Shown here: positions 6,821-17,102 of the stretch, one piece after another
Layout: each line of letters starts with the position of its first letter
How positions within the stretch are numbered: the first letter of the stretch is position 1
Sequence record: NC_073319.1
DNA from: Escherichia phage SZH-1
Length of the DNA: 43,969 nt
Strand: one strand, 5' to 3'
Position numbers and translations under genes: made by a program
Notes under the pieces: model-generated
The model's database searches: none
Seen by the model: only the letters and a program-made list of their open reading frames with translations
Told to the model about the DNA's origin: nothing

Positions 6821-7012
6821 TCAGTCCTCCAGAACCTCACACTCACGGGGGTACACAACTATATACCCGGCGTCGCATTCAATTACGAATATACCGTCAA
6901 CTACGTCGTCCGCTTCAAATTCATCCCCAACGGCAATACCCCAGTAACTAAGCGGAAAATCGTCGCCATCGCACGGGTCCACATAATCAACATCAGTTAT
7001 TCGAATTCTCAT
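6821..7012 (-). CDS. Acidic hypothetical protein (63 aa)
   Basis: ORF in a translationally coupled early gene chain. Confidence 0.5.
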   Translation of the reverse strand: MRIRITDVDYVDPCDGDDFPLSYWGIAVGDEFEADDVVDGIFVIECDAGYIVVYPRECEVLED

Positions 7013-7266
7013 TTACGGCAACCTCCCTCAGAGTCGTCGGCACGAGCATCATGATTCGGTGCCGTTGCGAATGAGGCGGAAACAACATTGAAGAAACTAA
7101 CTGTTAAAGTTTCGCTCACAGAGTCCTCTAAATCCCATTCATCACCGTCTTCATCTAAAACGTATCGACGGCCGTCGTAATATACCCCCGACGAATACTT
7201 GTTACCCTTTACAAACCAATGCTGCACATCTGGACCGGATTCAATACAAATTAATTCTTCCATCAC
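7009..7266 (-). CDS. Hypothetical protein (85 aa)
   Basis: ATGA-type overlaps on both sides. Confidence 0.5.
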   Translation of the reverse strand: MMEELICIESGPDVQHWFVKGNKYSSGVYYDGRRYVLDEDGDEWDLEDSVSETLTVSFFNVVSASFATAPNHDARADDSEGGCRK

Positions 7267-7454
7267 TTCGCCCCTTTGAATTTAAAATTGTTGCCGATGA
7301 GTGTTAAATTATCGCGTAAGGCGAAACCAGGTTTCTTTCTTACCAGACCCCATACGTCGACCAGATTATCCTCGTCATACTCGTTCTCGTCCTGCAACAC
7401 TAATACATATTGTTCTCCGCGTTTAGTTTTCGCCAACTGACCCTTCTTAAACAT
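7263..7454 (-). CDS. Hypothetical protein, first gene of the leftward early operon
   Basis: Internal ATG at 7454 with GAGGAG about 9 nt upstream; directly downstream of a TTGCAT-N17-TACTAT promoter. Confidence 0.5.
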   Translation of the reverse strand: MFKKGQLAKTKRGEQYVLVLQDENEYDEDNLVDVWGLVRKKPGFALRDNLTLIGNNFKFKGAK

Positions 7455-7486
7455 AACCCCCACTCCTCTGTCTCGTTCCTATAGGT

Positions 7487-7517
7487 GAATAGTATCCTAT
7501 TATGTTGGGGTATGCAA
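7487..7517 (-). promoter_or_regulatory. Leftward promoter TTGCAT-N17-TACTAT with dyad GAATAG-tatc-CTATT
   Basis: -35 at 7512..7517, -10 at 7489..7494; same motif family as 6134, 10923, 29405 and 38257. Confidence 0.5.
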
Positions 7518-7599
7518 GAGATTCATTGAAAATGGTTACGTTGCCGTTGCGATTCTTCAGGGAAGGTTGTGCCTTTATTCTTATTACTTGGTAACTAAA

Positions 7600-7620
7600 G
7601 GGCAGGCTTAAGGCCTGCCC
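7600..7620. promoter_or_regulatory. GC-rich hairpin in the divergent control region
   Basis: GGGCAGGC-ttaag-GCCTGCCC, an 8-bp perfect stem inside the 495-nt non-coding region. Confidence 0.35.
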
Positions 7621-7897
7621 AATAATCGTTACATTTTTACGGTTGCGAATCTACGGCACTTTAAGAAAATCAGATACTTAAGAGATTTGCTGCCGTTGAG
7701 AATAGAGCTTGCCCAGGGCAACCGGAGATACTTAGGAAGGAAAGTTACAATAATTCTCGTGTTCAGTAAGCCTGTGTTTAACCCTTTGCTTGTCGCACGG
7801 GTTAAACATTCTTACAAGGTGAACAGGAATCAAAGTAACTAAGATACAGAAGCACCTTAAACGAAGATTTTCATAATGTCAATAGGTGCGATTATGT

Positions 7898-7926
7898 TTG
7901 ATTTCCCATTATTCGCAATGTATACT
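7898..7926 (+). promoter_or_regulatory. Rightward promoter TTGATT-N17-TATACT for the replication operon
   Basis: Hexamers at 7898..7903 and 7921..7926, about 30 nt before the 7959 gene. Confidence 0.45.
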
Positions 7927-7958
7927 TGGTTTCGTTAACTGATAATGAGGGTTTGAGA

Positions 7959-8129
7959 ATGACACAGAATGAAGTAGCTGAGCGTATCGGGGTTACTCGC
8001 CGCACGCTGAATAACTGGTTAAAGAGCGGGAAGTTCCCGGATTGTTGTATCCGCATTATGGGTCGCCGCCAGCCTGGTACGTTCGACCCGGAGAAAGTGG
8101 AAGCGTGGATTAAGGAGAACGTGAAATGA
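7959..8129 (+). CDS. AlpA-like HTH DNA-binding protein
   Basis: ATG at 7959 (listed ORF begins at TTG 7926); MTQNEVAERIGVTRRTLNNWLKSGKFP matches the AlpA/excisionase-type HTH pattern. Confidence 0.6.
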   Translation: MTQNEVAERIGVTRRTLNNWLKSGKFPDCCIRIMGRRQPGTFDPEKVEAWIKENVK

Positions 8130-8359: not shown

Positions 8360-8417
8360 AAGAAAGCCCCGACGCGGTGAACGCCGAGGCTAAATTACTT
8401 GCTGAAGGAAATACAAC

Positions 8418-10662: not shown

Positions 10663-10689
10663 TAAAAAGAAAGGGGCGTTAAGCCCCTT
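10663..10689 (-). terminator. Terminator of the XRE regulator transcript
   Basis: Hairpin AAGGGGC-gttaa-GCCCCTT overlapping the XRE stop codon, followed on the minus strand by TCTTTTT. Confidence 0.45.
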
Positions 10690-10894
10690 CACCGAACGCC
10701 AGCCACTTGGCGTCTACTTGCAGCACTTCCGCCAGTTTAAACAGCGTTGCCGGGCGGACGTCCTGAGTTACCCCGAGTGCGAGCTGGTTAATCGCACCCT
10801 GGGAAACGCCGGCCAGGACAGCCAGACGGCGCTGTGAGATGCCGAGTTCTTTACGGCGTTGTTCTACACGGATGCCTAGTTCAGATGGTTGCAT
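10679..10894 (-). CDS. XRE-family (Cro/CI-type) HTH transcriptional regulator
   Basis: RRKELGISQRRLAVLAGVSQGAINQLALG is a classic XRE HTH; AAGGAG RBS; divergent from a consensus promoter. Confidence 0.75.
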   Translation of the reverse strand: MQPSELGIRVEQRRKELGISQRRLAVLAGVSQGAINQLALGVTQDVRPATLFKLAEVLQVDAKWLAFGEGA

Positions 10895-10958: not shown

Positions 10959-10988
10959 TTGACAACCTGAATAGTTAGCTATTATAGT
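10959..10988 (+). promoter_or_regulatory. Near-consensus sigma70 promoter TTGACA-N17/18-TATAGT with dyad GAATAG-ttag-CTATT in the spacer
   Basis: TTGACA at 10959..10964, TATAGT at 10983..10988; near-identical copy at 13237. Confidence 0.65.
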
Positions 10989-13236: not shown

Positions 13237-13265
13237 TTGACACCTGAATAGTTAGCTATTATAGT
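13237..13265 (+). promoter_or_regulatory. Near-consensus sigma70 promoter TTGACA-N17-TATAGT with the same spacer dyad
   Basis: About 30 nt identical to the promoter at 10959; upstream of the SSB-like gene. Confidence 0.65.
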
Positions 13266-16791: not shown

Positions 16792-17102
16792 CTAAAGAGG
16801 GCCGCGTACAGAAATATGCAAAGGAGCGATTCGAGGCCCTTGGTGGCCTCGTTCGTAAACTTTCCTACGAGGGGCGTTCCGGCGCCCCTGACCTGCTGGC
16901 AATTCTCCCCGGCGGCGTCGTCTGGTTCGTCGAGGTTAAGAAAGACGAAAACACGAAGCCTGACCCCCACCAGCTACGTGAGCATGAGCGGATGCGCAAA
17001 CGTGGCGCAAATGTTTTTGTCGTTGGTTCGATAAAACAGATTGACACCCTAATAGCAGACTATTATAGTAAGCACATACCCCAACAATATAAGGAATTAT
17101 AA
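16788..17102 (+). CDS. VRR-NUC domain nuclease
   Basis: ATG at 16788 (listed ORF begins at TTG 16773); PD-(D/E)XK-like core ...PDLLAILPGGVVWFVEVKK... Confidence 0.65.
   Translation: MTKEGRVQKYAKERFEALGGLVRKLSYEGRSGAPDLLAILPGGVVWFVEVKKDENTKPDPHQLREHERMRKRGANVFVVGSIKQIDTLIADYYSKHIPQQYKEL

Follow-up and report, generated by a model that had tools for sequence, protein, structure and literature searches.

What a long non-coding stretch between the leftward early genes and the rightward replication operon of a phage genome is for, be it transcription control, RNA production or replication initiation, is the question raised by positions 7455 to 7958 of Escherichia phage SZH-1 (sequence record NC_073319.1), whose complete 43,969-nt stretch is referred to here as the window. 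The original prediction, made from the sequence alone, presented this gap as a candidate main regulatory hub or replication origin. The comparative analysis reported here leads us to favor, with moderate confidence, a reading of the gap as the early transcription control region of a Kagunavirus-type lytic phage, combining back-to-back promoters with a structured leftward leader.

On sequence grounds, the window is a phage genome of ~44 kb of the Kagunavirus type, within the subfamily Guernseyvirinae. A near search matched 897 bases around the gap to 344 phage records at 60-99% identity, a distant search matched the gap region to 363 phage records, and by organism name nearly all of the records from both searches are Kagunavirus- or Jerseyvirus-type phages. 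The comparison set comprised 42 IMG/VR loci found with the helicase-primase, 8 short loci and one full Jerseyvirus genome (GenBank phages). The non-coding gap between the leftward small genes and the rightward operon of helix-turn-helix (HTH) and primase-helicase genes proved to be real, although its extent had to be corrected from 495 to 504 nt: ATG 7454 on the minus strand is the most plausible start of the leftward gene and has a GAGGAG Shine-Dalgarno sequence 9 nt upstream, whereas GTG 7463, previously taken as its start, lacks a Shine-Dalgarno spacer.

7455..7958, unstranded: whole non-coding control region, 504 nt, flanked on the left by the small leftward genes (ATG 7454) and on the right by the HTH gene (ATG 7959)

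Beyond the gap, the rightward genes encode, in order, a 56-amino-acid (aa) HTH_17/excisionase-type protein (ATG 7959), a 77-aa protein and a 747-aa replicative helicase-primase. This layout agrees with that of annotated relatives, and the small leftward genes stop at the gap.

The gap is a patchwork. Its left end (7455-7557) is common to nearly all Kagunaviruses, positions 7558-7680 come in at least three alleles, and positions 7680-7958 occur either as the allele of the window (A), which is also found in Jerseyviruses, or as at least three unrelated alleles (B1, B2 and B3). Sigma-70 sites were scored with a simple position weight matrix (PWM) on nine intergenic region (IGR) sequences covering all alleles (the window, two Kagunavirus and two Jerseyvirus relatives, and B1-B3), and the candidates predicted in the window were as follows.

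7898..7926, plus strand: rightward early promoter P_R, TTGATT-N17-TATACT, 12.4 bits; predicted start ~7933, Shine-Dalgarno GAGGG at 7948-7952, ATG at 7959
7854..7882, minus strand: distal leftward promoter P_L2, TTGACA (7882..7877)-N17-TAAGGT (7859..7854), 12.0 bits; predicted start ~7847
7489..7517, minus strand: proximal, weaker leftward candidate P_L1, TTGCAT-N17-TACTAT, 8.0 bits, 28 nt upstream of the Shine-Dalgarno sequence of the left gene

The -35 elements of P_L2 and P_R are 15 bp apart. According to the PWM, the strongest leftward site lies at the right end in all nine IGRs, and in all but one it stands back-to-back with the strongest rightward site. Exceptions were found in L022, where P_R (9.9 bits) scores within 0.2 bits of another rightward site, and in allele B3, where P_R (9.9 bits) is the best rightward site and a second leftward site (8.9 bits) lies between it and the strongest leftward promoter. 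Jerseyviruses keep the hexamers and spacing of the window's promoter pair, with TAAGTT as the leftward -10, and the P_R hexamers are invariant while the spacer sequence varies between genera. Each of the B alleles has a pair of its own: TTGCTT-17-TATACT (rightward) and TTGACT-17-TAAGCT (leftward) in B1, TTGTGT-17-TATAGT (rightward) and TTGACA-16-TAAAAT (leftward, 14.8 bits) in B2, and TTGCTT-17-TATACT (rightward) and TTGAAA-18-TATAAT (leftward, 14.3 bits) in B3. Because this geometry is repeated in alleles that cannot be aligned, it constitutes independent evidence that both promoters are real. With their hexamers, 16-18 bp spacing, outward orientation and a geometry kept in relatives, P_R and P_L2 are, as predicted from sequence, a divergent sigma-70 pair. 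The leftward promoter reported by a simple scan (TTGCGA 7918-N16-CATAAT 7891) was ranked below the TTGACA promoter, and its -35 is lost in Jerseyviruses. The weaker P_L1 appears as TTGCAC-17-TACTAT in Kagunavirus alleles A and B, and no site scored at its position in Jerseyvirus L026, where the left-end sequence differs.

The earlier claim that the gap holds both promoters stands insofar as it contains the best sigma-70 pair for both operons, but the layout needs revision, with both strong promoters back-to-back at the right end. Since the strong leftward promoter lies there, most of the presumed spacer would be a transcribed leftward leader, with ~390 nt lying ahead of the first leftward gene. 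Alleles B show no terminator-like site between the distal leftward promoter and the left genes, so that in those phages the distal promoter must feed the left genes. RNA sequencing of the Kagunavirus vB_Eco_K1B4 placed an HTH gene among only four early genes, on the basis of gene-level timing (PMC12645636). Judging from gene order only, that gene probably corresponds to the HTH gene analyzed here, and its early expression would fit P_R as an early promoter.

The predicted leftward RNA carries a long hairpin close to its 5' end, with basal, middle, outer and apical stems.

7742..7840, minus strand: imperfect hairpin of 99 nt at the start of the predicted leftward RNA (~+8 to +106), uniting three inverted repeats
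7743-7748/7835-7840: basal stem
7749-7765/7820-7832: middle stems
7766-7770/7811-7815: outer stem, GTAAG/CTTAC
7775-7784/7799-7808: apical stem

Among 31 distinct variants, a single architecture is maintained throughout, consisting of the basal stem, the middle stem with an internal loop, a 5-bp outer GUAAG/CUUAC stem and the apical stem. The basal stem AGUUAC/GUAACU is invariant, and the apex sequence is wholly different in at least five types. On the alignment of 16 Kagunavirus variants, 93.2% of the cells form standard pairs, versus 30-43% when the partners are slid by 1-3 columns; six pairs are altered on both sides, and the outer stem closes with G-C in 8 variants, A-U in 5 and U-A in 2. 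The covariation score of the hairpin was reached by none of 500 shuffles. In Jerseyviruses, the lower middle stem has been rebuilt with another sequence (UUAAGUUU/AAACUUAA) after an 8-9-nt insertion. Together, these comparisons provide strong evidence that selection acts on the hairpin fold. Which strand folds is less clear. Several G-U pairs can form on the minus strand alone (G10-U105 in 14 of the 16 sequences, and a change from A-U to G-U at 39-74 in five), the GUGAG/CUUAC outer stem of most Jerseyviruses likewise contains a G-U pair possible on the minus strand only, and the minus-strand fold is the more stable one in ~13 of the 16 Kagunavirus variants. On the fold and promoter evidence we take the folded species to be a minus-strand RNA, a strand preference that is suggestive and not decisive. 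A covariance model of the hairpin identified one copy in the window, one in the complete Jerseyvirus genome and none in the allele-B loci, and a flank-anchored pattern scan of IMG/VR for further variants returned mostly chance matches.

Further along the same predicted RNA lies the 8-bp GC hairpin of the original prediction.

7600..7620, minus strand: GC hairpin GGGCAGGC-loop-GCCTGCCC, 8-bp stem with 7 G-C pairs and a 5-nt loop

The hairpin is present as described and has been retained in relatives through compensatory changes; by our own estimate, ~0.05 perfect 8-bp hairpins are expected by chance per 500 nt. Within allele A, the only change to its stem (GGGCAGGC/GCCTGCCC) is a compensatory one from C:G to T:A in Jerseyviruses, and alleles B present a GGGTGGGC/GCCCACCC stem at the equivalent relative place. 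On the minus strand the hairpin is followed by the tail TTTAGTTACC and just passes a terminator scan in the window and in the Jerseyvirus, and on the plus strand it has no tail. We infer that in allele A it may partially terminate or attenuate leftward transcription, which would give rise to a ~255-nt non-coding RNA and to read-through transcripts. In the window, L001 and L007 the loop sequence is TTAAG, against CTTAA in most relatives, with the stem unchanged, and a flipped loop of this sort is the kind of flip made by intrastrand template switching.

The gap shows no coding potential. Small proteins that could be encoded within it (+7502-7594, +7687-7842, -7629-7721 and -7732-7833) were ruled out by indels or a lost start in relatives, and no conserved open reading frame (ORF) survives the comparison with them. 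The plus-strand 30-aa ORF is disrupted by a 10-nt deletion, the 51-aa and 33-aa ORFs cross the variable hairpin, where length changes of +3, +10, +12 and -2 nt break their frames, and the TTG start of the minus-strand 30-aa ORF is absent from Jerseyviruses. In the 40 of the 363 phage records that were listed, annotation under the match was absent or consisted just of 'hypothetical protein' ORF calls, and a literature search returned no description of the gap region, its promoters or an origin. Some of the GenBank records L001 (OR594180.1), L165 and L166 annotate such 'hypothetical protein' ORFs in the gap (for instance, L001 4215-4331 and 4407-4562), and one record carries an Autographiviridae/Kayfunavirus taxonomy line despite a Kagunavirus-like sequence. 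An additional small hairpin keeps its position in relatives.

7709..7721, unstranded: small hairpin TTGCC-CAG-GGCAA, position kept in relatives with the same segment

A putative regulatory site is found at the predicted start of the leftward transcript.

7831..7848, unstranded: 18-nt block CAAAGTAACTAAGATACA, at ~+1..+17 of the leftward transcript, imperfect palindrome GTAtCTTAGtTAC

This block is unique in the window, becomes the perfect palindrome GTAACTT-C-AAGTTAC in Jerseyviruses, and recurs with 17 of 18 positions, inverted, between the two -35 hexamers of allele B1 (E = 0.001). By its sequence it looks like a candidate operator for a dimeric regulator; by eye it fits neither the IHF nor the LexA consensus, no formal scan having been made. 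A regulator is at hand in the HTH protein, an HTH_17/excisionase-type DNA binder by family match, whose identity to the window's protein follows the right-hand allele: 78-86% with Kagunavirus allele A, ~70% in Jerseyviruses and 47-59% with allele B. This pattern indicates modular exchange in which the HTH regulator gene moves with the right half of the gap, and their joint change fits a regulator with its own sites. Relative to Salmonella Jerseyviruses, nucleotide identity reaches 88-90% at 7600-7700 and 66-87% elsewhere in the gap, and the helicase-primase gene shows 55-70% DNA identity (64% for the protein). By this comparison, the gap is conserved as strongly as its flanking genes or more, with ~88-90% identity between Kaguna- and Jerseyviruses at 7560-7745, well above adjoining coding DNA.

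The gap and its left flank also contain members of a 13-mer repeat family.

7542..7554, plus strand: repeat copy 1, TGCCGTTGCGATT, its centre ~66 nt upstream of where the proximal promoter is predicted to start
7638..7650, plus strand: weak repeat copy 2, TACGGTTGCGAAT, two mismatches to the degenerate pattern
7691..7703, plus strand: repeat copy 3, TGCCGTTGAGAAT, AUUCUCAACGGCA in the leftward RNA
7060..7072, plus strand: extra exact copy, TGCCGTTGCGAAT, lying not in the gap but within the leftward gene 7009-7266

The near-repeats noticed earlier at 7542 and 7691 are present, 11/13 alike and part of a family that is non-random in the genome, but in relatives they resemble each other less or are absent. 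Across the 44 kb, the degenerate 13-mer TGCCGTTGMGAWT is matched exactly at three plus-strand positions (7060, 7542 and 7691), the extension CG[AT]TGNGA[AT]T occurs at those three sites only, and six of the eight genome copies of TTGMGAWT fall within 7065-7960. The 13-mer family is more than chance in this genome. The 8-mer shared by the copies is, on its own, weak evidence: TGCCGTTG is the top octamer, with ~0.25 copies expected per 500 nt, and together with CAACGGCA it has 22 copies in the window versus ~2-2.7 expected under Markov models of orders 1-3. In relatives the repeat copies stay in place as TGCCGTTGTGATT (7542) and TGCCGATGAGAAT (7691), which are 10/13 alike. The former is found in almost all relatives, alleles B included; the latter is found in nearly all relatives with the segment and is missing from alleles B1-B3. 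The 7638 copy is nearly invariant in the Kaguna- and Jerseyviruses with the segment, with one variant, TACGGTTGTGAAT, in L004, and further copies are found in relatives inside leftward genes, at variable distances. At position 9 of the repeat, the window has C at both 7060 and 7542, and relatives have T in both of these copies. Several copies lie at homology edges: alleles A and B lose homology just past the 7542 copy, at 7557, the copies at 7060 and 7292 precede conserved gene junctions, and homology between phages restarts exactly at the 7060 copy. From these comparisons, the repeats may be protein-binding sites, or boundary words homogenised by recombination.

The octamer itself is distributed well beyond the gap. 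TGCCGTTG sites span the whole window (for example, 5990, 7060, 7542, 7691, 8308, 12743 and 41706), and 19 copies of TGCCGTTG/CAACGGCA are genic, versus ~2 expected under codon shuffling, with CAACGGCA on the coding strand in 15 of the 19. TGCCGTTG also holds rank 1 in the Jerseyvirus Salmonella phage FSL SP-101 (L173), with 20 copies, and rank 425 in lambda; 8 of 16 mappable octamer sites are positionally common to the window and the Jerseyvirus. The case for CAACGGCA as a discrete Chi-like signal was weakened by the finding that the excess accrues from pentamers, with a 1.1-1.4-fold gain per further step, and the octamer excess, built from the pentamers ACGGC/CGGCA, may be an oligonucleotide-usage bias rather than a discrete signal. 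The small leftward genes next to the gap (7000-7310; also in L001, L003, L008, L012 and L013) are interchangeable cassettes whose bodies vary between phages, while their junctions of ~45 nt (gene end, stop, Shine-Dalgarno sequence and next start) are conserved, opening with a member of the 13-mer family. For the 85-aa protein encoded at 7012-7266, the match to a PHROG is confined to the 18 C-terminal residues.

Taken as an early transcription control region, the gap would operate as follows. Host sigma-70 RNA polymerase would start at the two back-to-back promoters at the right end of the gap, with P_R (7898-7926) transcribing the excisionase-type HTH gene and then the primase-helicase operon, and the leftward promoter (7882-7854) starting at ~7847 and yielding a leader RNA of ~390 nt. 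The first 100 nt of this leader would fold into the long hairpin 7742-7840, which might serve RNA stability, RNase III processing or protein binding. Leftward transcripts would then meet the GC hairpin with its poor U tail (7620-7600), where part of them would probably stop to form a non-coding RNA of ~255 nt, and the remainder would read through into the small leftward genes, which the weaker proximal promoter (7517-7489) could also serve. The block at 7831-7848 and the TGCCGWTGNGAWT 13-mers would be candidate sites for the HTH protein, or another early factor, to tune or shut off the promoters.

A number of observations weigh against this model. The P_L2 -10 hexamer, TAAGGT, matches just 3/6 consensus positions and fails a stricter scan, which reports only P_R of the pair, and all transcript starts and ends are predictions. 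The tail TTTAGTT is far poorer than those of clear leftward terminators, such as the TTCTTTTATT tail that follows an 11-bp stem at 8391-8365, and the GC hairpins of alleles B have no U tail at all. For the Jerseyvirus hairpin variants, the plus-strand fold is about as good as the minus-strand one or better, pair 15-99 could be a wobble on that strand alone, and a DNA-level hairpin or cruciform would yield identical covariation. The near base-by-base conservation of 7560-7745 between genera exceeds the needs of a plain leader and is left unexplained by the model, and the co-variation of HTH and IGR alleles may be simple linkage.

The conservation of 7560-7745 (~88-90%) is better suited to a functional RNA than to a spacer, and it speaks for a rival reading, a stand-alone gene for a trans-acting or protein-binding small RNA of ~255 nt (~7847 to 7592, minus strand), with the proximal promoter alone serving the leftward genes. 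The promoter and the terminator-like hairpin come in the correct order and on the correct strand for such a gene, its 5' hairpin covaries, and the weak Rfam matches on the minus strand, driven by the terminator, are all to small-RNA models. We nevertheless consider this gene unlikely, given that the terminator tail is poor, and absent in alleles B, and that the proximal promoter is weak (8 bits) and has no site in Jerseyvirus L026, which would leave the left genes there without a promoter. Moreover, Rfam 15 assigned the region to no family (best scores of 14-18 bits versus gathering thresholds of 41-90, all on terminator-like hairpins), and no similarity hinting at a base-pairing target or mimic was found in E. 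coli, with positions 7556-7860 lacking a match, as host mimicry or antisense target, in 5,426 genomes. A broader version, to which we likewise give little credence, is that the leftward promoter drives an undescribed, family-wide structured non-coding RNA of ~250 nt, with the 99-nt hairpin at its 5' end, a near-invariant core at 7560-7745 and the GC hairpin at its 3' end, in several hundred Kaguna- and Jerseyviruses and perhaps with a function of its own. Were it true, such an RNA could modify RNA polymerase to read through the downstream hairpin, as a put-like processive antiterminator, or could prime or load the phage primase-helicase, making transcription control and replication start one element. 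The binding-site interpretation of the 13-mers has its own competitor, tentative and yet less doubtful than the small RNA gene: the repeats would be by-products of oligonucleotide bias and recombination, short words marking the ends of gene cassettes and homogenised by exchange between copies. It draws on the top rank of TGCCGTTG in the window (22 copies) and SP-101 (20 copies), against rank 425 in lambda, on the position of the 7060 and 7292 copies exactly where inter-phage homology resumes and of the 7542 copy just before the A/B divergence, and on the concerted shift of position 9 in the 7060 and 7542 copies. The octamer bias, however, fails to explain the GA[AT]T extension of the three exact copies, and in a mosaic alignment any conserved functional island resembles a junction.

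Quite unlikely, in our assessment, is that the gap DNA, alone or besides the promoters, is a replication origin opened by the primase-helicase or another initiator, with the 13-mers as binding sites, the hairpin as a single-strand initiation or primase-loading signal, as in the oriV of IncQ plasmids, and leftward transcription as an activator. The gap adjoins the replication operon, between divergent transcription units, its sequence is very highly conserved, and a same-strand repeat family is concentrated there. The helicase part of the protein is RepA-like (AAA_25); IncQ plasmids have a RepA helicase. The invariant hairpin base and flanks with a free apex form the pattern expected if a protein reads the base. 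GC content at 7-8 kb is 42%, versus ~46-57% in other 1-kb windows, and the cumulative GC-skew minimum also lies at 7-8 kb. This minimum, however, coincides with the flip in gene orientation and is thus not independent evidence for an origin; the AT enrichment is only moderate, and no DnaA box (TTATCCACA, within one mismatch) occurs in 7000-8000. The repeats form no array: instead of three or more closely spaced iterons of ~17-22 bp in the same orientation, the 13-mers occur at 7060, 7542, 7638 and 7691, with spacings of 482, 96 and 53 nt, and in relatives they are less alike and are not conserved and co-varying with an initiator. Phages with alleles B lack one repeat copy and have a primase-helicase 85-88% identical to the window's, while Jerseyviruses with a primase-helicase of just 64% identity carry the window's allele; the IGR allele does not track the primase-helicase allele, and the site therefore does not co-evolve with that protein. 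The hairpin covariance model, as noted, finds nothing in allele-B loci, and the primase domain could not be classified: the N-terminal 350 aa of the helicase-primase have no match in PDB or NCBIfam, a homologue search retrieved three proteins, and a single-sequence AF2 model reached a pLDDT of 33. A P4 alpha-type origin was rejected, since the helicase is AAA_25/RepA-like and not of superfamily 3, and the AGGTGAACAG at 7817 (reverse complement of P4 TGTTCACC) is hairpin stem; GGTGAACA at 7818 lies within the same stem, where Jerseyviruses have a 1-nt insertion. Of the suggested hub or origin, the hub is upheld by the promoter pair, the conservation and the exchange with the HTH gene, and the origin has no positive evidence beyond location.

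As an early control region, the gap resembles lambda PL/PR with the Cro/CI operators in having two outward sigma-70 promoters for early leftward and rightward operons, a small HTH regulator as the first rightward gene, and a region and regulator exchanged as a module. Unlike lambda, it has no repressor gene between the promoters, its -35 elements are 15 bp apart, and it shows no triple operator array; the regulator is of the HTH_17/excisionase type rather than Cro/CI, and the leftward unit carries a ~390-nt untranslated leader. In T7, RNase III sites are found between each of the early genes, and the lambda N leader contains an RNase III-sensitive hairpin. The hairpin described here is similarly long and imperfect, with internal loops, and it closely follows a strong early promoter and precedes early genes. 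In contrast to T7, it is present in a single copy per genome, and it shares no sequence similarity with those sites. The oriV of IncQ plasmid RSF1010 comprises iterons and the ssiA/ssiB hairpins, which are read by the RepB' primase, with the RepA helicase. Likenesses to it are a RepA-like (AAA_25) helicase fused to a primase, short same-strand repeats nearby and, as in ssi, a hairpin with conserved base and free apex, whose strand preference is weak and mixed. A tandem array of 20-bp iterons is lacking, however, as is a second hairpin on the opposite strand, and relatives with a nearly identical primase-helicase do not carry the hairpin. The primase domain of the window's protein has no detectable similarity to solved primases, RepB' included. 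In T4-type phages, promoter-early stem-loops (PeSL) are repeated regulatory cassettes that mediate gene shuffling. The 13-mer resembles them as a short repeat in an early region of small interchangeable genes, at points where homology starts or stops, but it is not a promoter and stem-loop, it has only 3-5 copies, and its role in recombination is suggested by junction positions only.

Overall, the region is typical of early regulatory regions in phages, with a structured leader of unusual length, and it does not overturn current understanding. Phages of the Guernseyvirinae (Kagunavirus and Jerseyvirus) rank among those isolated most often when therapy or food biocontrol targets E. coli K1 and Salmonella. 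A correct promoter map matters for their annotation, with gene callers placing spurious ORFs in the gap, and also guides the search for the origin; for engineering, payloads would naturally be inserted or insulated at this site. As a clean candidate for a new family of cis-regulatory RNAs, the covarying 99-nt hairpin stands out, and the alternative gap alleles represent a natural experiment on regulator and site specificity.

Other putative regulatory signals were noted outside the gap.

8365-8391, minus strand: strong leftward terminator (11-bp stem, tail TTCTTTTATT) between the 77-aa and primase-helicase genes, inside the rightward operon
8458-8430, minus strand: promoter-like site TTGCGA-17-TAAAAT, just upstream of that terminator in Kagunaviruses
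10670-10690, minus strand: leftward terminator-like hairpin (GAAGGGGC...GCCCCTTT, tail CTTTTTACCT) just past the end of the primase-helicase gene, opposing the rightward operon
10959-10988, 13237-13265 and 17041-17069, plus strand: near-consensus promoters with the common hexamers TTGACA-N17/18-TATAGT (11/12)

The terminator at 8365-8391 is kept in all relatives, Jerseyviruses included, and the -10 of the site at 8458-8430 is degraded in Jerseyviruses. This site and the terminator could make an antisense RNA of ~65 nt over the ribosome-binding site and ATG (8418) of the primase-helicase gene. By their coordinates, the three plus-strand promoters (10959, 13237 and 17041) fall in gaps between long rightward ORFs, and their sequences suggest a set of strong host-type promoters within the rightward replication block.

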